This document shows, piece by piece, positions 2,656-61,171 of a stretch of DNA of 64,000 nucleotides. Position numbers and translations under genes: made by a program. The stretch comes from an uncultured Anaerolineales bacterium (GTDB lineage: Bacteria > Chloroflexota > Anaerolineae > CG2-30-64-16), in assembly GCA_964474695.1 (NCBI GenBank), contig CAYYTK010000002.1:235898-299897 (forward strand). Direction: 5' to 3'. The first letter of the stretch is position 1, and every line of letters begins with the position of its first letter. The notes beneath the pieces were generated by a model, which did not search any database, was not told the origin of the DNA, and saw nothing but the letters and a program-made list of their open reading frames with translations.

Positions 2656-3729
2656 TTACTGACCGGTATTGTTCAGCTCTTCGAAGGATTTCCGCAGCCG
2701 GGCCTTGAAGGTCTCCTCGCCGGCGCGCAGCCAGGCACGCGGGTCATAATACTTCTTGTTCGGCTCATCCGGTCCCTTGGGGTTGCCGATCTGGCCTTGC
2801 AGGTATCCTTCGTTCTTGACGTAGTAATTCTTGATGCCTTCCCAGAAGCCCCACTGCAGATCGGTGTCGATGTTCATCTTGATCACGCCATAGGAGACCG
2901 CATCGCGAATCTCCTCCAGCGTCGAGCCGGAGCCGCCATGAAAGACCAGGTCCAGCGGCTTCTCCGGCGTGCCATGCTTCTGCTGGATGTAGGCCTGGCA
3001 ATTGTGCAAGATCTCCGGCCGCAGCTTCACGTTGCCCGGCTTGTAAACGCCGTGCACGTTGCCGAACGCGGCCGCGATGGTGAAGCGCGGGCTGACCTGC
3101 ATCAGCTCCGAGTAGGCTTTATCCACATCCTCAGGCTGCGTATAGAGCCGCGAGCTGCTCACACCGGTGTTGTCGACGCCATCTTCCTCGCCGCCGGTGA
3201 TGCCCAACTCCAACTCCAGAGTCATCCCCATCTTGCTCATGCGCTCCAGGTAACGCTTGCAGGTTTCGATGATCTCGGGCAGCGGCTCTTCCGACAGGTC
3301 CAGCATATGCGAGCTGAAGAGCGGCTTGCCGTGCACCTTGTAGTAGGCCTCGCCTGCGTCCAGCAGACCATCCACCCAGGGCAGCAGTTTCTTGGCGCAG
3401 TGATCGGTGTGCACCATGACCCGCGCGCCGTAGGCTTCAGCGAGCTGATGGACGTGCATTGCGCCGGCGATGGCGCCAGCGATAGCTGAGCGCTGTCCGG
3501 TGTTGCTCAACCCCTTGCCGGCATAGAAGATCGCGCCGCCGTTGGAGAACTGAATAATCATCGGCGCATTCAGCTCGGCAGCGGTCTCCAGGCAGGCATT
3601 GACCGTGTTGGTTCCCGTACAGTTAGCAGCGGGCAGGGCGAACTGATGCGCCTTGGCATAGGCAAACACCTTCTGCACGTCGTCGCCCAGGATGACGCCA
3701 GCCGGGACTAAACCGTTTAAAGCAGACAT
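2656..3729 (-). CDS. fbaA: Class IIa fructose-1,6-bisphosphate aldolase
   Basis: MSALNGLVPAGVILGDDVQKVFAYAKAHQFALPAANCTGT...IIQFSNGGA resembles E. coli-type FbaA over its whole ~357 aa. AAGGAGG lies 8 nt upstream of the ATG at 3729. Confidence 0.9.
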   Translation of the reverse strand: MSALNGLVPAGVILGDDVQKVFAYAKAHQFALPAANCTGTNTVNACLETAAELNAPMIIQFSNGGAIFYAGKGLSNTGQRSAIAGAIAGAMHVHQLAEAYGARVMVHTDHCAKKLLPWVDGLLDAGEAYYKVHGKPLFSSHMLDLSEEPLPEIIETCKRYLERMSKMGMTLELELGITGGEEDGVDNTGVSSSRLYTQPEDVDKAYSELMQVSPRFTIAAAFGNVHGVYKPGNVKLRPEILHNCQAYIQQKHGTPEKPLDLVFHGGSGSTLEEIRDAVSYGVIKMNIDTDLQWGFWEGIKNYYVKNEGYLQGQIGNPKGPDEPNKKYYDPRAWLRAGEETFKARLRKSFEELNNTGQ

Positions 3730-53923: not shown

Positions 53924-54697
53924 GTTGGTAGATTGGTAGGTTGGTTCCTGTCATTCTGAGGCGACCTTCGGTCGACGGGGCGCGAAGAATCTCGTGGTGC
54001 GTCTCCCCGTCCCCCCGTCTCCCCGTCCCTTCGCCGCCCGGCCGTTCCGCACCGCGTCCGTCCTGCTGATGGGCCTCGACCTGGCTGCGGTCGTGCTCCT
54101 GGTGCTGCCCGCCTCGAATGCCTGGTTTCGCGCGCTGAATCGAGCGCCGGTCGCGGCGGCGCTGGCCGCACGGAAGAGAAAGAAGCGCCGATCTTAGCAA
54201 CGAAGGGCGCTCTGATGGCTTGCGGGACGTCCCCTAATCTCCTAATCCCGGCCCCTCCGAGCGGTTAGCGGGGATTTGGGGATTTGGGGTACCTTCGCAG
54301 AAGAAAAAGCCCCAGCCGCGGCAAAGAAGGGCGCTCTCAAAAAAGACTCCAAATAGGATCCTTCTTGCGCCAGGCAATCCTCGCCCCATGCGGGATATGT
54401 ACGCGCCTTTGTCCAATTCTATTACCTATTGCGCGTTCATATACCCCATGCTATACTTATTCCTGTGGTTGCTAGAGAATGACGAGTTCGACTTTCTGCA
54501 GCAGGAACGCGCATAAGCCAACAAGGCAACGATTGATCTGTGACTGGCCGCTTAGTAATGAAGAAAATCTGGCTGGCGAGTCACCAGGACCCGGCCGCCC
54601 CGCTTGGACTGGTCGGTTGGTGGTGGGGCTTGACGCTCCTCTCCAACTCACTGGGTCGCATTGCAGGAAGGCTGGCGCATGGGTGTTGTCTAGCTGT

Positions 54698-55219
54698 ATG
54701 GTACTACGTCGCAATAAGCCCAACTTCGACACTAAGAGCGCCCGCGAAGCTGTGACAGGTGGTCTTTTCCTCGCGCTTGTGTCATGGGTGCTCGGCCTTC
54801 CCTTTGCAGTTTACCTTATTGTGACCGGAATCAAAGACAGAGCGTTTTGGTCTGTTTTGGTGGGTCTATTCATGGTTCCCATCCTGCTATTCCAGGGCGT
54901 CATGGACATCGGAATGGTTCTGGATGGGATATCGACCCTGGTTGACCGAAAGCATTGGATCAGTGGTGCAGCAAGAACCTACGCGAAAGTACTGCAGAAG
55001 AAAGAGGACTCGTACGACGCCAGCTATGATGAGGGAACCGTCTTCACGCATGAGTTGGCGCTGGCCATCGAACCATTCATGGCGGTTGACGATGCGAATA
55101 AGCAATGCGTCTGGGCGAGCGTGAGCAAACAGATCTATGATAAGTATGCCACAGGCGACATTGCCGGGGTCTATTACCTTCCCTCCAGCCCGCTGACTTT
55201 CGTCATTGATGGTGAATAG
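54698..55219 (+). CDS. Hypothetical membrane protein (2 TM + C-terminal soluble domain, weak DUF3592-like resemblance)
   Basis: An AT-shifted region; a 60-nt stretch I counted is 50% G+C. The start at MVLRRNK is a guess, and the track ORF begins at 54479. The C-terminal ...GDIAGVYYLPSSPLTFVI is only loosely reminiscent of DUF3592. Confidence 0.4.
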   Translation: MVLRRNKPNFDTKSAREAVTGGLFLALVSWVLGLPFAVYLIVTGIKDRAFWSVLVGLFMVPILLFQGVMDIGMVLDGISTLVDRKHWISGAARTYAKVLQKKEDSYDASYDEGTVFTHELALAIEPFMAVDDANKQCVWASVSKQIYDKYATGDIAGVYYLPSSPLTFVIDGE

Positions 55220-55430: not shown

Positions 55431-58400
55431 CTACGCCGTCGCGTACCTTCCATCCTCCCCCGCGCGCGCCTGCCCCAGCGCGGCCAGCGCGGCCAGCCAC
55501 TCGCTCACCCGGCCAGCCGGCGCCGCGCCGGTTCCGGCGGCGTCGAACGCCGCCGCGACCTCTTCCGGCGTCACCGGCCGGCCCAGCGCCACCAGCGCGG
55601 CGCGCACCGCGGCGGCCTGCTCCGCCAGCCCATCGGGCCAGGGGAGGAGGGGGCGCGCGGCGGGAGGGGCTTCGGCGCCGGGGGCCTCTTCTTCGAATGG
55701 GGCGGTCGTGAAACGTGATGTGCGATCGGCCGGCGCCTGGTACTCCGGCCGCAGCCAGCGCACCAGCCCGCGCGCCTCTTCAGCCGCGCGTTCCGCGTTG
55801 AGCGCTACAAGCCGCGCCAGGATCTCCTCGTCGCTCAGCGTCGTGGGCCAGCCGTACGCGTCGAACACAGCCGCGTCCAGGTCGTCGTGGAGCTGCCGCA
55901 GCACGGAGACCAGCCCCTGCTCGTGCGTGACCTTTTCGGCCTTGGAGAGCGCCTCGCCCGCGCGCAGCTTCTCCAGCACGTTGTACATGTCGGTGAGGGT
56001 CAGCTTCGGGTGCTGGGCCTGCTGGCGTTTACGGTGGCCGTCGAGCTCCTCCGCGAGGCCGCGGATGCGCGCCCTTTGCGCGTCGGTGGCGTCGGGAAAG
56101 GGGAAGGGATCAAAGCATCGTGATTTGGTATAGATCGGCCTGTCCTCCAGTGTGCCACCATTGGCCAATGCCCAAGTCACATGGATTCGACTTGCTAGAA
56201 TACCAAGAAAGAACGCATCTTCTAGCGCAAAATTTGTAAGTCGGTTATCTGGGAGAATATCGCCGGCGAGAAACACAAACACCCGATGCTTGGAAGTCTC
56301 TGGAGTAGAGATGAAGCGGTTCAGACCAGCAGATGTCTGTCGCCACAAGGGTCGTTCCCAACCGAACCGCCACCAGGTTTCACGAATGGATCTGCGGCGA
56401 TTCTGGTCGCGTTCAGGTTTCACGCGATCAAGCACCCTTTGATAGGCGTCGGGATGAAGGGTGGAGGCCTCCTGTTGCGAACACCCAAAAAAGTCAATCA
56501 CAAACGCGTTTCTACTTCGGCCGACCAGATCACTGCCATTGATGTATTTGCGAATCACCTGACGAGCCCTGCTGCTTCGGGCAAGCCCGGTCAGGCGTAT
56601 TGCCTCGTCATGATCGACGATGAAACCAGAGCCGTAAAGCTGGACTCCTGGTGAACATAAGCCGGCATTTGCTCGCAATCCCCGCGCTTGATCCAAATCA
56701 ACGCCTGCTGTCAGGTCAGAGTTGATCTTGGAGGCCAGTGAGAATTCGACCGACACAGCACCGTCTGTCTGTTCGGCGATGACTTTGCCAAGATGCACCT
56801 CGTTGGACTGGGACGCCTGTCCAACGGTCATCGCAATTCGCACGGCGGCAGCGCTTTCAGTGTCGACCCAAGGATGATCAGGAATAGCCATTACCAGCTG
56901 GAGGGGGTTTGAGGCCTCCAGATGGTACCGGAGAACCCTTCTCTGAAAGACCTGAGTGATACTGTTGGTGGTGATGAAACCGAATCGCCTGATCTGCTTC
57001 TCCCGAGCTTTAGCCGCTGCACGATCCCACCAATACATTACGTAATCCGCCTTCTGTGGAATCTGAGGATAGGCAGACCAAAGTCCTTCTACGTAGCCAT
57101 CGCCCTGTGCTTGGCGAATTCGCCAGCCACCGATGAACGGCGGATTCCCCACCACAAACTCCGCGTCCGGCCACTCGGCGGGGCGGGGATTGATATAGCG
57201 GTACGCGGGGATGCGCGCGGCCTCGTCCGGCACCTGCTCGCCGGTCACGGGGTGCGTCACGGTCGTCCGGCCGTCCCAGCGGGTGACGGGCCGCCCCGCG
57301 GCATCCAGCAGCGGCTCGATCGCGTCCCACGCCAGCACCGCGTCGCGGCGCTCGATGTTGTGGTAGTTTGCCAGGATCGGCTCGGGCAGGTGGCCCACAT
57401 CCCCTGCGGTCTGCAAGCGCCAGCGCAGGTAGCCGATCCACAACACCAGCTCGGCGATGGCGGCCGCGCGGGGGTTCACCTCGATCCCCAGCAACTGCCG
57501 CGGGGTCACGCGCACCGCCTCCAGCTCCAGCAGCATCTGGTCCGCGCCGAGCTGCCGGCGCACCTCCAGCACCTCCGCCTCCAGCCGCAGCAGGTGCTCC
57601 AGGCTCACGTAGAGAAAGTTGCCCGTGCCGCACGCGGGATCCAGGATCCGGACGGCCGCCAGCCGCCGCTGGAACGCCTCCACCTCCCCCAGCGCCTTGT
57701 CGGGCTTGCCGTCCTCCACCAGCCGCAGCGCCGCGGCCTGGACCGCCTCCCACTCCGCGCGCAGCGGCTCGACCACCGTGGGCGTCACCAGCCGCTCGAC
57801 GTAGGCGCGCGGGGTGAAGTGTGCGCCGAGCTTGTGCCGCTCCACCGGGTCCAGCGCGCGCTCCAGCAGCGCGCCGAAGATCGCCGGCTCCACGTCGCGC
57901 CAATCCGCCTGCGCGGCCTCGATCAGCAGTTGGAGCTGGTCCTCCGTGAGGGGCAGCCCGGCGGCGTCCTCGAACAGCCCGCCGTTGAAGTGAGGGATGG
58001 GCAGCCGCAGCGCCAGCGAGAAGCCGCCGTGCGCCATGGTGCTCCACAGCTCCTCGACGAAACGGGGGAAGTGGGCCACGTTGCGCCGCGCGTCCGCCAG
58101 CAGTTGGGTGAAGCTGCCCGCGGGGAGCAGCGCCACGTCCTCCGCGAACATGGTGAACAGGCAGCGCATCAGGAAATGGGCCACCGCGTCGGGGTCGTGC
58201 CCCCGTTCCAGCGCCTGGGCCAGCCGCGCCAGCCGGGCCGCGATCTCGCGCGTGACGCGCGCCGCGCGGCGGCCGGGGTCGAGGCTCATGGGGTCGAGCC
58301 AGACCGTCCGCAGCAGCTCGCGCGTCTCGGGCTGGTGCAGGTCGGCCAAGCTGATGCGCGCCGCGAGGGGGTTCGGGAAGGGGACGTAGTTGCCGCCGGT

Positions 58401-58907
58401 GCGCGTGAACTCGCTGTAGAGAGCCAGCGACTCGCCCACGTCGACCACGATCAGGAAGGGGGGCCGGCCGCCGTCCTTGAGCTCCTCGGTCGGCAGATTG
58501 CGCGCGTACGATTGGGCCTGCTGCCGCGCCCGCTCCATCGCGGTGTCCCAGGCCGCGGTGCCGCGCGGCGCGACCCCCTTCTTTCGGCTGCGGGCGCGCG
58601 CCTCGCCGGCAGCGGAGAGCGGGGGCTCGGTCGGGAGACCGGCCCCAGCCTGGGCCTCGCCCCCTTGCTTCGCCTCCAACACGAAGCAGCCGCGGCGGTA
58701 CAGGTCGATGCGGCCGGTGGCGCCGTGGGGCAGCGGGACGCTCTTCTCGAAGACGTAGGCGTTGGCGGCCTCGTCGGGGGTCGCGGGGTCGGGCCGCGGC
58801 GCATCGAGCACGTCGCACAGCTCGGAGAGGAAGAGCTGGTAGTTGGCGCGCTCCGCCGCGCCGGACTTCTGCCAGCGCGCGATGAAGCGTTGGATGTCGT
58901 CGGTCAT
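55431..58907 (-). CDS. MmeI-like type IIL restriction-modification enzyme (fused endonuclease / N6-adenine methyltransferase / specificity domain)
   Basis: The N-terminus [19 protein letters not shown]...[19 protein letters not shown] gives a D-X9-E-X-K nuclease motif arranged as in MmeI. Also SAM motif [12 protein letters not shown] and catalytic [10 protein letters not shown]. Start could be 58964 or 58907. Confidence 0.8.
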
Positions 58908-58980
58908 GGTCGCGTCAGGTGGGGGGCCGCCGTCCGAAGTGCCGACAGGGATATCATACACCAATTCGGGGATACCGCAA

Positions 58981-59335
58981 ATGACGTTGCCGGATGCTGG
59001 AAGCCGGATATCCGAGCTTGACAGTCGGTCACCCCCACACCGTGGTGCAGAACAACCTGTTCAACCGCAGCCAGATCGGCACGGTCCTGGCGTGCGCCTT
59101 GACCTCGAACCTCAAACGGGCCAGCGCGCCCGGCAACGTCCTCCTGGCTCAAGGCGAGGCGAATCTCTCCAAGCCCAGCGTTGCCAATGTGTCACAGCTT
59201 TTGACGGTGGACAAGTCGCAGTTGGGCGAGTATATCGGGTCGCTATCCGCCAGGCGGGTGCGCCAGGTGCTGGATGGCATCAAGCTGCTCCTGGAGCCGC
59301 GCGAAGTAGATGTGGATCCGCGTAGTTGGACATGA
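58981..59335 (+). pseudogene. Degraded MazF/PemK-family toxin gene (N-terminus deleted or frameshifted), no cognate antitoxin ORF seen
   Basis: ...TVVQNNLFNRSQIGTVLACALTSNLKRASAPGNVLL..GEANLSKPSVANVSQLLTVDKSQL..IGSLS...VLDGIKLLL is the MazF/PemK core. The expected ~15-25 N-terminal residues (RG-I-W-V-D...G-E...RP) are missing. A short out-of-frame MTLPDAG..ELD start is at 58981. Confidence 0.55.
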
Positions 59336-59364
59336 GATGTTCTCCCGAAATTTTCGAAACGGTG

Positions 59365-59393
59365 TTGACAAACACCGTGTTTCGTGATATGCT
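59365..59393 (+). promoter_or_regulatory. Near-consensus sigma70 promoter inside an operator-like palindrome, facing the 3' end of the DUF3800 gene
   Basis: TTGACA (59365-59370), 17 nt, TATGCT (59388-59393). The palindrome is CGAAACGGTGTT-GACA-AACACCGTGTTTCG (59355-59384). Confidence 0.6.
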
Positions 59394-59399
59394 CTTATC

Positions 59400-59515
59400 C
59401 AGAAGTGCGGCTTGTAACACCTGGCGACTCTGGCCACCTGCGGTGGTCTAGCCCACCGGCGCAACCCCGGTGGGGACAGATTGAAATCGGAGCCCAGGGT
59501 GAGCCGCTCTTTCAT
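59400..59515 (+). ncRNA. Candidate structured small RNA adjacent (convergent) to the DUF3800 gene
   Basis: No plausible CDS. Long-range helix 59407-59412/59502-59507 plus 59418-59424/59494-59501. Internal hairpins at 59432-59448 and 59452-59474. A U-rich run follows the closing helix. Confidence 0.45.
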
Positions 59516-60127
59516 TTAATCCCACAGTGCGATCCGCAGCAGCTCTTCAACCGCGATCCGCGGCGCGATGATATCGTAAAACTCCTGCGCACCGCGCACA
59601 TACTTCTGGAACAACGCCCACGCCACATAATCGACGGCCTGCACCCCCCGCTCGGCAATGGAATCTTCGTGCCGGATCACTATGTTGGACTGGAGTCCCA
59701 CGAGATGGTCCCGAATGGCTTGCTCCAGAAGCTCACGCAGCTTCTGCGATGTGTAGCGTTTGTCAAGATAGAGATCAAGTTGCGGCTGGCGCTCGACCGC
59801 GCGTCGCACAGCCTCAGCGACGGCAAAGCGATAGATCGCGCGTGGATCGGCTGGCGGCCGCAGGATGACCGACTTATCGACCACGACAGCGATGATCTCA
59901 ATCGGACTGGCAGCCAGTGCTCGCAAGAGCCATTTTGTCACGGCGGGCGGTGAGGCGTCGGCCTTCATCTCGCCGGAGGCCAGGCTGGCGCCGTACTTCC
60001 GGCGGGCGCGCATAACCGCCAGTTCCAGGGCGCGCGGCTGGCCTGTGCTCAGCACGGCGACGACTAGATAAGGCTGGCCGCCAAACGGAGTCTCGTCGCC
60101 GGACTCATCGAGAAACGCATAGGCCAT
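59516..60127 (-). CDS. DUF3800 domain protein
   Basis: MAYAFLDESGDE... N-terminus and ~200 aa length fit my recollection of DUF3800. Function unknown. Confidence 0.65.
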   Translation of the reverse strand: MAYAFLDESGDETPFGGQPYLVVAVLSTGQPRALELAVMRARRKYGASLASGEMKADASPPAVTKWLLRALAASPIEIIAVVVDKSVILRPPADPRAIYRFAVAEAVRRAVERQPQLDLYLDKRYTSQKLRELLEQAIRDHLVGLQSNIVIRHEDSIAERGVQAVDYVAWALFQKYVRGAQEFYDIIAPRIAVEELLRIALWD

Positions 60128-60196
60128 CGGTTAGCCTAACTCCATCCAGCACTTTAGGATCGGCGCCACCCCCACCGCCCGACCAAGGGTCTGCGC

Positions 60197-61171
60197 TCAC
60201 AACTGCAGCCAGGTCCCCAGCCCGCGTTCCACCGCGCGGCGATAGACGATCGGCGCGGTCGCCATGTCGTCCAGCGCCAGGCCCAGGTTGCAGGCGATGG
60301 TCCGCTCGGCCGGCGACTGGCGGCCCGGCTTCCGGCCTGTCACCAGCTCGCCCAGGCTGGCGTAGATGGGCGGGATGCTCCGGAAGTAGCCGATGCTGCG
60401 GTAATATTCGAGCTGCGGGATGTCGTCCGTGCAGAACTTATCGACCTCCTGCAGCGCGGGGCCGGCCCAGTACGAGTCGTAATCCACCAACGACGCAAAC
60501 GCGCCTGCGTCCAGCCAGCCGGCCTGGATGGTGGCGTGCGGGGTGTGCAGGATGGGACCCGCCGTGACCACCATGTCGCAGCCGCTCACGGCCTGGCGCG
60601 GGTCGTCGACCACCTTCACCTCCAGGCCGAACCGCGCGCTCACCTCGGCCGCGTAGCGCTGCGCGTTCTCCGGCGTCTTGTCGTAGGCCCTCACGCGCTT
60701 GACCGGGAACAGGGTCACGAGCCCTTCCAGGTTCGTGCGCCCCTGCACGCCGCAGCCAAGGATGCCCACCGTCTCGGATTCCGGCCGCGCCAGGTAGCTG
60801 GCGGCCAGGGCGGTCGCGGCGCCGGTGCGCATCGCCGTGATCCAGGTGCAATCCATGACAGCCAGCGGCATGCCGGTCTCGTCGTCGTTCAGGATCAGCA
60901 GCCCGGTGATATAGGGCAGCCCCCGCTGCTGGTTTCCCGGGTAACCGCTGACCCACTTCATGCCGATGGCGTGCAGCGCGGGGATATAGGCCGGCATAGC
61001 ATGGATAAAGGCGTCGGGCCGGGAGTGGACGCCCGGCTTGGGCGGCATCTCCGCGTGGCCGAGGCCGTGCTCATGAAAGGCGACCGCCAGCGCGTCGATC
61101 ACCTCGCGCATGGTGACGCCGGCTGCTTCCACATCGGCGCGGGAGAGATAGAGAAGCTGATGAGGGGTCAT
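60197..61171 (-). CDS. Ornithine cyclodeaminase / mu-crystallin family protein
   Basis: ...MPAYI......G.KWVS.YP.N...GLP.I.GL..LND..TG.P.A.MD...IT..RT.A..A.A...LA... is the OCD pattern. Start at MTPHQLLYL, with AAGGAG 6 nt upstream. Confidence 0.85.
   Translation of the reverse strand: MTPHQLLYLSRADVEAAGVTMREVIDALAVAFHEHGLGHAEMPPKPGVHSRPDAFIHAMPAYIPALHAIGMKWVSGYPGNQQRGLPYITGLLILNDDETGMPLAVMDCTWITAMRTGAATALAASYLARPESETVGILGCGVQGRTNLEGLVTLFPVKRVRAYDKTPENAQRYAAEVSARFGLEVKVVDDPRQAVSGCDMVVTAGPILHTPHATIQAGWLDAGAFASLVDYDSYWAGPALQEVDKFCTDDIPQLEYYRSIGYFRSIPPIYASLGELVTGRKPGRQSPAERTIACNLGLALDDMATAPIVYRRAVERGLGTWLQL

Follow-up and report, generated by a model that had tools for sequence, protein, structure and literature searches.

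We analysed a 64,000-nt stretch of DNA from an uncultured Anaerolineales bacterium (GenBank contig CAYYTK010000002.1, positions 235,898–299,897 of the forward strand; the whole stretch is called the window here), which almost certainly carries a cassette of ~0.87 kb made up of a strong promoter, a 107-nt folded RNA and, converging on it, the gene for a 203-aa DUF3800 protein with an RNase HII-like predicted fold and all of the acidic active-site residues. The RNA belongs to the already catalogued class DUF3800-III. As far as sequence comparison reaches, homologous loci show this RNA to be a transcription unit of its own that is selected for its fold and is inseparable from this clade of DUF3800 proteins.

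Taken alone, the locus is a further member of a catalogued family, one that an Rfam scan would annotate automatically. Weinberg et al. reported DUF3800-III RNA in 2017 (Nucleic Acids Res 45:10811, PMC5737381) and proposed no function for it; in that study DUF3800-I was seen next to DUF3800 genes, and a search around such genes then yielded DUF3800-II to DUF3800-XI (PMC5737381). We found no later functional study in the literature on DUF3800, PF12686, the drum and skipping-rope RNAs or type VII retrons. The DUF3800-III family has thus been without an assigned function since 2017, and DUF3800 proteins recur as retron effectors and CRISPR accessory proteins.

A DUF3800-III RNA facing a DUF3800 gene

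Scanning the entire 64-kb window against Rfam 15 with cmscan placed RF02962, the DUF3800-III RNA, at 59404–59510 on the plus strand, with 75.8 bits against a gathering score of 43.8 (E = 6e-18). The match covers the full model (positions 1–108 of 108) and was obtained on the plus strand only, and no other Rfam family, retron families included, was found in the window. An initial annotation, made by a model from the sequence alone, had noted that RNA motifs named after DUF3800 exist; the window RNA is one of them. With our own RNA model (R1) it scores 84.6 bits. Its Rfam score of 75.8 bits lies below the 100–130 bits of typical members because the subgroup to which it belongs (with loci L007, L010, L051 and L064–L066) has a P1 helix without the bulged A and slightly different loops in P3 and P4.

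The RNA is closed by P1, in which 59404–59414 pairs with 59500–59510. An internal loop between P1 and P2 contains a UAA at 59415–59417; the 5' strands of P2 (CCUGG) and P2b (CUC) occupy 59420–59430 and find their partners at 59490–59498, and the enclosed region holds the hairpins P3 (59432–59448) and P4 (59452–59474), followed by a near-invariant single-stranded junction of 15 nt, GACAGAUUGAAAUCG, at 59475–59489. A U-rich tail (59508–59517) extends past P1 to the DUF3800 stop codon, and a scan for terminator-like sequences flagged 59496–59510 together with this tail. The minimum free energy (MFE) of the plus strand is −52.4 kcal/mol (z = −2.72), a stability reached by 0 of 200 shuffled sequences, and the minus strand folds less well (z = −1.56). 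The helices proposed in the initial annotation, namely GCGGCU with AGCCGC, CACCUGG with CCAGGGUG and the two hairpins, are all present in the MFE structure and all correspond to consensus helices of RF02962. The proposal lacked just the 3-bp extension P2b, formed by CUC at 59428–59430 and GAG at 59490–59492.

On the opposite strand, the open reading frame (ORF) at 59516–60127 encodes 203 aa and matches PF12686 (DUF3800) over profile positions 1–148 of 149 (E = 1.3e-10; 42.6 bits against a gathering score of 21), as had been annotated. It ends 5 nt beyond the RNA, whose U-rich tail overlaps the stop codon by at most 3 nt. A 189-aa ORF on the plus strand (59384–59953) was rejected as coding and regarded as the opposite-strand shadow of the DUF3800 gene, because insertions and deletions between homologues break the triplet register and conservation falls on base pairs instead of codons; the expectation that no credible coding sequence follows the plus-strand promoter was therefore borne out. 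No second site matching the junction GACAGAUUGAAAUCG was found on either strand of the window with up to three mismatches, and tandem repeats were not found in 58900–60300.

Conservation of the fold among homologous loci

We assembled two sets of related loci, one through the RNA and one through the protein. For the RNA-ascertained set, a 19-base pattern built from the most conserved positions was searched in contigs from one genome per species, giving 61 loci with ~52 true copies, nearly all of them from metagenome bins of Anaerolineae or other Chloroflexota; two more copies lie on viral contigs of IMG/VR. Fifty-six RNA copies were aligned by plain MAFFT (alignment A1), and the five helices were set by hand rather than fitted to a model. 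The protein-ascertained set comprises 80 metagenome loci gathered via the protein alone and then searched with R1, which yielded 83 RNA copies.

Across A1, 92.5% of cells form standard pairs, compared with 31–61% when the 3' partners are slid, and compensatory changes occur in 23 of the 33 pairs, values that none of 500 shuffles reached. In A1 the changes affect 7/10 pairs of P1, 6/8 of P3, 6/7 of P4 and all three of P2b, and both sets support all five helices. The protein-ascertained set gave 95.5% paired cells and compensation in 25/33 pairs, in an alignment that was fitted to the model. Variable positions fall within helices, and unpaired positions are invariant across loci. The strand of the RNA, which the initial annotation had argued from a single G.U pair, is corroborated by the family as a whole: over the 56 homologues, G.U pairs fill 183 cells on the plus strand, and 24 cells would be G.U on the minus strand.

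The UAA of the internal loop is invariant in 56/56 copies although the search pattern had not included it, and UAA recurs among the DUF3800 motifs (Weinberg 2017, PMC5737381). In most copies the P4 loop follows the form U-GNRA-Y, and P3 is mostly capped by a GNA triloop. Conservation of the 15-nt junction is in part a result of the search pattern, but it is also conserved in the protein-ascertained set, whose copies score 100–132 bits. Several copies carry an insertion of 30–65 nt, apparently within one hairpin, and still match the full model (L092, L099 and L100, each 141 nt long; L139, 166 nt; L140, 177 nt).

A strong promoter for the RNA

Promoters were scored against an Escherichia coli-type consensus. 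The RNA is preceded by TTGACA (59365–59370) and TATGCT (59388–59393), separated by 17 nt and scoring 10/12, with a TG at 59385–59386, two bases before the −10 box. The coordinates agree with those first annotated, and this promoter (59365–59393, plus strand) is the sole sigma-70-like site in 58800–60400 when both strands are scanned; shuffled sequences average 0.3 sites. About 47 of the 56 loci have a promoter of at least 10/12 that ends 16–23 nt before the invariant UAA, that is, 5–9 nt before P1, and the upstream TG is present in most of the homologous RNA promoters.

Upstream of the RNA, the best promoter score averages 10.1/12 (n = 87) compared with 7.10 in random windows, whereas the 115 nt upstream of the DUF3800 start codon give a mean best score of 7.16 (n = 83), which equals the background. 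An element TGGATGGAGTT(G/A) containing a ribosome-binding GGAG is conserved 12–20 nt upstream of the DUF3800 start in the window, L051, L106 and L135, loci in which the DUF3800 proteins are only 45–80% identical; the window copy lies at 60135–60148 and reads TGGATGGAGTTAGG in the minus-strand sense.

Linkage and gene content

The suggestion that RNA and protein make up a two-component module is supported by their linkage. Every protein-ascertained locus that extends far enough past the gene (76/76) carries the RNA, which invariably sits on the other strand, immediately beyond the stop codon; the four loci without an RNA match and the two with cut-off matches all end at a contig edge. Conversely, 42 of 54 RNA-ascertained loci contain an intact convergent DUF3800 gene. 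Across related loci the two genes always converge, with a gap of 1–45 nt between RNA and stop codon. When the ORFs within 3 kb were clustered all against all, no third gene family common to the 54 loci emerged, only DUF3800 and its opposite-strand shadow ORFs.

The cassette shared with the closest relatives spans 59312–60177. Homology to L051, L064 and L007 (blastn, 78–80% identity) begins at 59312–59365 and stops at 60157–60177, where the flanks become unrelated, and the guanine–cytosine (GC) content of the cassette is 58–61% compared with 65–75% in the flanks. Because homology is confined to this interval, GC content falls below that of the flanks and no further gene is held in common, we conclude that the unit is a mobile cassette of ~0.87 kb.

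Two forms of 3' end were seen. In the window form, a T-run follows straight after P1, with the convergent stop codon inside it or just beyond; in a second form, found in ~20 loci, an A-run, a GC hairpin and a T-run come after P1 and together make a two-way terminator, with the DUF3800 stop codon beyond it. A T-run follows P1 in most relatives. The terminator-like scan found no separate terminator for the DUF3800 mRNA in the window.

The DUF3800 protein has a predicted RNase HII-like fold

The clade of DUF3800 proteins associated with this RNA has ~200 members in protein databases, all of ~200 aa and with a single domain. A profile search of solved structures by sequence gave only a chance match to ribosomal protein L23 (E = 0.036); because sequence profiles detect no relationship to RNase HII, a comparison of folds was needed. 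The AlphaFold2 model of the window protein is predicted with high confidence (predicted local distance difference test, pLDDT, 94.5; predicted template modelling score, pTM, 0.91), and its top seven matches in the PDB are all archaeal RNase HII structures (1eke, 3p83, 1i39, 2dfh; E 1e-6 to 2e-4, template modelling (TM) score ~0.55–0.58), the best being 1eke (E = 1.2e-6, TM 0.58). RuvC and Argonaute chains appeared only at E > 0.2. The structure prediction thus points to a nuclease fold.

In archaeal RNase HII, the first two catalytic residues are an Asp–Glu pair at positions 7–8. Ten residues of the DUF3800 protein are invariant in 56 sequences (D7, E8, G10, E53, D122, Y125, S156, Q163, D166 and W170). 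Among these are the N-terminal DE (D7–E8) and the C-terminal QxxD (Q163-A-V-D166) motifs in the sense of Mestre 2020. D122 and D166 would correspond to the other two RNase HII carboxylates, and the protein is probably an active nuclease. Neither PADLOC nor NCBIfam contained a model matching it. At two loci the DUF3800 frame is open far upstream of the usual start (693 aa in L012 and 516 aa in L008), so that an N-terminal fusion is possible there.

Duplicated RNA genes, orphan RNAs and viral-classed contigs

The association is asymmetric: the protein was never found without the RNA, and the RNA was sometimes found without the protein. Six loci (L109, L114, L119, L121, L123 and L128) have two tandem RNA genes with their own promoters, ~150 nt apart, next to a single DUF3800 gene; those of L114 lie at 3160–3272 and 3311–3422 on the minus strand. 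A duplication of another kind was seen in L002 (1383–2590), where two entire RNA and DUF3800 modules are arranged head to tail, ~1.07 kb apart.

The DUF3800 gene of L010 is internally deleted and its RNA is kept, and in L004, L019 and L060 the RNA stands beside DUF3800 fragments only. A further six loci (L003, L024, L038, L040 and the viral L062 and L063) have an RNA of 76–112 bits with no DUF3800 within 3 kb. Overall, well-preserved orphan RNAs with promoters, scoring 88–112 bits, occur next to a degraded DUF3800 gene or none. The minus strand of L043 carries RNA copies at 1292–1400 and 2450–2558, 1.15 kb apart, with an unrelated 210-aa ORF between them; each of these RNAs is trailed only by a short C-terminal trace of DUF3800 (…LW and stop). 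L041 was grouped with L043.

Two of the RNA-only copies lie on contigs classed as viral in IMG/VR. In L062 (7859–8126, plus strand), where DUF3800 is absent, the RNA is served by a TTGACA/TATACT promoter of its own and by a separate terminator hairpin. In L063 (5190–5308, minus strand), it lies 450 nt downstream of a same-strand tRNA-Trp gene and near a TAGT-like glycosyltransferase fragment. None of the 12 ORFs of these two contigs matched PHROGs, and the single Pfam match among them was TAGT-like, in L063. A looser 5' pattern matched at least 120 viral stretches; among the matches listed, a search of the 118 new ones with R1 gave no RNA. A protein scan of the viral collection did not find DUF3800 of this clade; it contained one relative with 23% identity, without the RNA.

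Proposed function and alternatives

The comparative picture turns the lack of any hypothesis for DUF3800-III into a short list. It rests on absolute linkage, fixed convergent geometry with terminators, lopsided promoters, duplicated RNA genes, RNA that survives loss of the protein gene, the copies on viral-classed contigs and an intact predicted RNase HII-like active site. The initial annotation had offered toxin–antitoxin-like, antisense-controlled and RNA-guided or RNA-sensing variants of the module; the first of these fits several indirect observations.

We lean, at somewhat less than an even chance, toward the RNA being a neutralising partner of the DUF3800 nuclease that acts in trans. Rather than base-pairing with the mRNA, the RNA would bind the DUF3800 protein of its own cassette in folded form; it has features typical of RNAs whose shape matters, namely a GNRA loop in P4 and invariant junctions. 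Abundant and constantly renewed, the RNA would occupy the nuclease and keep it inactive. Should the RNA be lost or altered, as might happen if a phage blocked host transcription or targeted the RNA itself, the RNase H-like enzyme would be freed and would then cut nucleic acid and stop the cell or the phage. The logic would be that of a toxin–antitoxin or abortive-infection pair, resembling a type VII retron in which a plain RNA replaces the multicopy single-stranded DNA (msDNA).

A neutralising role is preferred over that of an activating cofactor because the promoters are asymmetric, RNA genes are duplicated, RNA occurs without protein and not the reverse, RNA-only copies lie on viral-classed contigs, and retrons offer a precedent for a DUF3800 effector paired with a structured nucleic acid. 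A bolder version is possible though doubtful: the cassette may be an RNA-antitoxin or abortive-infection module of a new kind, in effect a retron without reverse transcriptase, and the copies on viral contigs would then be phage decoys that disarm it, comparable to pseudo-ToxI for ToxIN. Were this so, a similar explanation would probably hold for the ten remaining DUF3800 RNA motifs, and perhaps for the drum and skipping-rope RNAs.

Several points weigh against neutralisation. A cofactor role also predicts most of the evidence, including the 100% linkage and the strong RNA promoter. The anatomy of type III toxin–antitoxin systems is absent, as the RNA lacks tandem repeats and the two genes do not run in the same direction, and PADLOC has no model for the protein. 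Just two viral contigs carry the RNA, and their viral status depends on IMG/VR and one TAGT-like gene. The orphan RNAs may simply be recent remnants, or they may act with a DUF3800 protein encoded elsewhere in the same genome, of which the fragmentary metagenome bins show only part. Finally, the promoter asymmetry depends on the E. coli-type consensus, and the DUF3800 gene may be read from an upstream gene.

The alternative that survives best, a possible though doubtful one, is that the RNA is an obligate cofactor or scaffold of a ribonucleoprotein, in which it activates the nuclease by letting it fold, assemble, or find or cut its substrate. RNA is a frequent partner of RNase H-fold nucleases, as in Argonaute, TnpB and IscB. 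The RNA accompanies the protein in all 76 testable loci, is preceded by a strong promoter and has tertiary-structure features of a 'sophisticated' RNA. Moreover, eleven unrelated RNA folds accompany DUF3800 genes (Weinberg 2017, PMC5737381), as if each clade needs an RNA partner. However, no variable guide segment is present: both ends of the RNA are locked in P1 and its single-stranded parts are constant between loci, so that the RNA-guided option is disfavoured by the paired ends and invariant loops; nor does the window contain a complementary site elsewhere. The protein has only 203 aa, and orphan RNAs that keep their promoters and score 88–112 bits occur beside a degraded DUF3800 gene or none. 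A pure cofactor also accounts less easily for the copies that stand alone on viral contigs.

It is unlikely that the RNA is a cis-antisense regulator, acting through pairing or collision with the 3' end of the DUF3800 mRNA as in RatA/txpA. The strictly convergent arrangement, with 1–45 nt between RNA and stop codon, would suit such a mechanism, as would the missing terminator of the DUF3800 mRNA in the window, where the mRNA may run into the RNA gene. But the RNA itself ends within ~3 nt of the stop codon, and in ~20 related loci the two-way terminator (A-run, hairpin, T-run) stands between the genes; these inter-gene terminators, and orphan copies with no gene to regulate, disfavour antisense control. 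It is also the fold, not the sequence, that covariation preserves; simple pairing would leave the GNRA loop and the invariant junctions without a role, and a soluble enzyme of 203 aa is no small membrane peptide.

A reading on which the RNA promoter is governed by an operator, with a repressor that could be DUF3800 itself, is slightly less probable still. The imperfect palindrome noted over the −35 box does lie at 59355–59384, with core arms ACGGTGTT (59359–59366) and AACACCGT (59371–59378) of 8 nt each that are 100% complementary, and it exceeds shuffles of a 40-nt window at p ~0.01. Its role as an operator did not hold up: at 44 homologous promoters the best inverted repeat averages 4.66 nt compared with 4.70 in shuffles, and 1/44 reaches p < 0.05. 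The palindrome is conserved in neither position nor structure and is missing even in the closest relatives (L007, L051 and L010); it is specific to the window, and with so many loci examined a single match at p ~0.01 could be due to chance.

The weakest alternative, that the region is merely the 3' untranslated region or terminator of the DUF3800 mRNA, accounts for a structure directly past the stop codon but is effectively excluded by the strand evidence, as the 183 G.U cells would be A.C mismatches on the mRNA strand, that strand folds worse (z = −1.56 versus −2.72), the conserved promoter points the opposite way, the Rfam match is confined to the plus strand and the RNA also occurs without the gene.

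Genomic neighbourhood

Upstream of the cassette lies a gene for an MmeI-type IIG restriction–modification enzyme (55431–58964, minus strand; PADLOC REase_MTase_IIG, 1508 bits). Its GC content is 53–57% over approximately residues 590–990, which include the target-recognition domain (especially 56000–57200), and 70–77% at both ends; the gene is possibly mosaic, or it may have acquired its recognition domain by a swap. Between this gene and the cassette, a MazF/PemK-like ORF (58994–59335, plus strand) matches profile positions 22–109 only, the N-terminal fifth being lost in frame, and a piece resembling the missing MazF N-terminus, DRDIIHQFGDTANDVAG, lies just upstream in another frame (region 58920–59335). 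On this sequence evidence the MazF/PemK-like gene is a frameshifted pseudogene, with no adjacent antitoxin gene.

The surroundings had been described as a defence-type island. The IIG enzyme and MazF remnant are indeed present, but the island is small: branched-chain amino-acid transporter genes flank it on one side and ornithine cyclodeaminase and EamA transporter genes on the other, and it amounts to a 5-kb insert between housekeeping genes rather than a large defence island, holding the IIG enzyme, the MazF pseudogene and the cassette. A stretch of low GC content (52–54%) at 54200–55200 adjoins the restriction–modification gene, contains a 246-aa ORF without a Pfam match (54479–55219, plus strand) and may be part of the same acquired insert.

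Comparison with known systems

Judged by sequence features, assignment of the module to type III or type I toxin–antitoxin systems, retrons or RNA-guided nucleases is not supported, although it resembles each in part. DUF3800 is the RNase H2-like effector of type VII retrons, with a mechanism that is not known (Mestre 2020, PMC7736814). Like the module, retrons of this type combine an RNase H2-like DUF3800 carrying a DE motif at its N-terminus with an adjacently encoded structured nucleic acid, and they too occur in a defence-related setting. They differ in that the module has no reverse transcriptase, here or in related loci (no such domain was found in the ORFs scanned in 45.5–63.4 kb of the window), and in that the partner is plain RNA rather than msDNA. 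The window protein also has the full QxxD motif (Q163, D166) and D122, whereas the retron clade is without the Q and has a DEED set (Mestre 2020, PMC7736814). DUF3800 is likewise an RNase H-fold accessory protein in some Cas12a2, Cas12a3 and type VI-F CRISPR loci, again with a mechanism that is not known (Altae-Tran 2023; Makarova 2025; BaCas12a3 paper).

Type III toxin–antitoxin systems (ToxIN, CptIN, TenpIN) are alike in consisting of two genes, a nuclease and a strongly expressed RNA, and the DUF3800-III RNA may similarly neutralise its protein; an RNA that outlives the protein gene also fits type III logic. Type III antitoxins, however, are short tandem repeats cut out by the toxin, located upstream and co-directional, and they accompany ToxN-type endoribonucleases, whereas the cassette has a single 107-nt multi-helix RNA, a convergent arrangement and an RNase HII-like protein. 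The protein matched none of the ToxN/AbiQ, CptN and TenpN toxin families, as Pfam returned only PF12686 and PADLOC gave no match. In type I systems such as RatA/txpA and SR4/bsrG, the RNA and protein genes also converge so that their 3' ends meet. Those RNAs act as antisense, pairing over an extended stretch with an mRNA that encodes a small membrane toxin; in the module, many loci have insulating terminators between the two genes, the fold is what is conserved, and the protein is globular, with 203 aa and a predicted RNase HII-like structure, not a small hydrophobic peptide.

RNA-guided RNase H-fold nucleases (TnpB and IscB with omega RNA; Argonaute) share with the module a nuclease of the RNase H-like superfamily encoded beside a large structured RNA. 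The module differs from them in having neither a guide segment nor target diversity, and its much smaller protein is closest in fold to RNase HII, not to RuvC or PIWI. RNase HII itself (1eke, 3p83, 2dfh) provides the best structural matches, with the Asp–Glu pair at residues 7–8 and two further invariant aspartates in the window protein, but sequence identity is 14–16% and a dedicated RNA partner is not a feature of a housekeeping RNase HII. The closest counterpart remains the DUF3800-III motif, with which the window locus shares its helices, conserved junctions and neighbouring gene family, and from which it shows no difference in kind.

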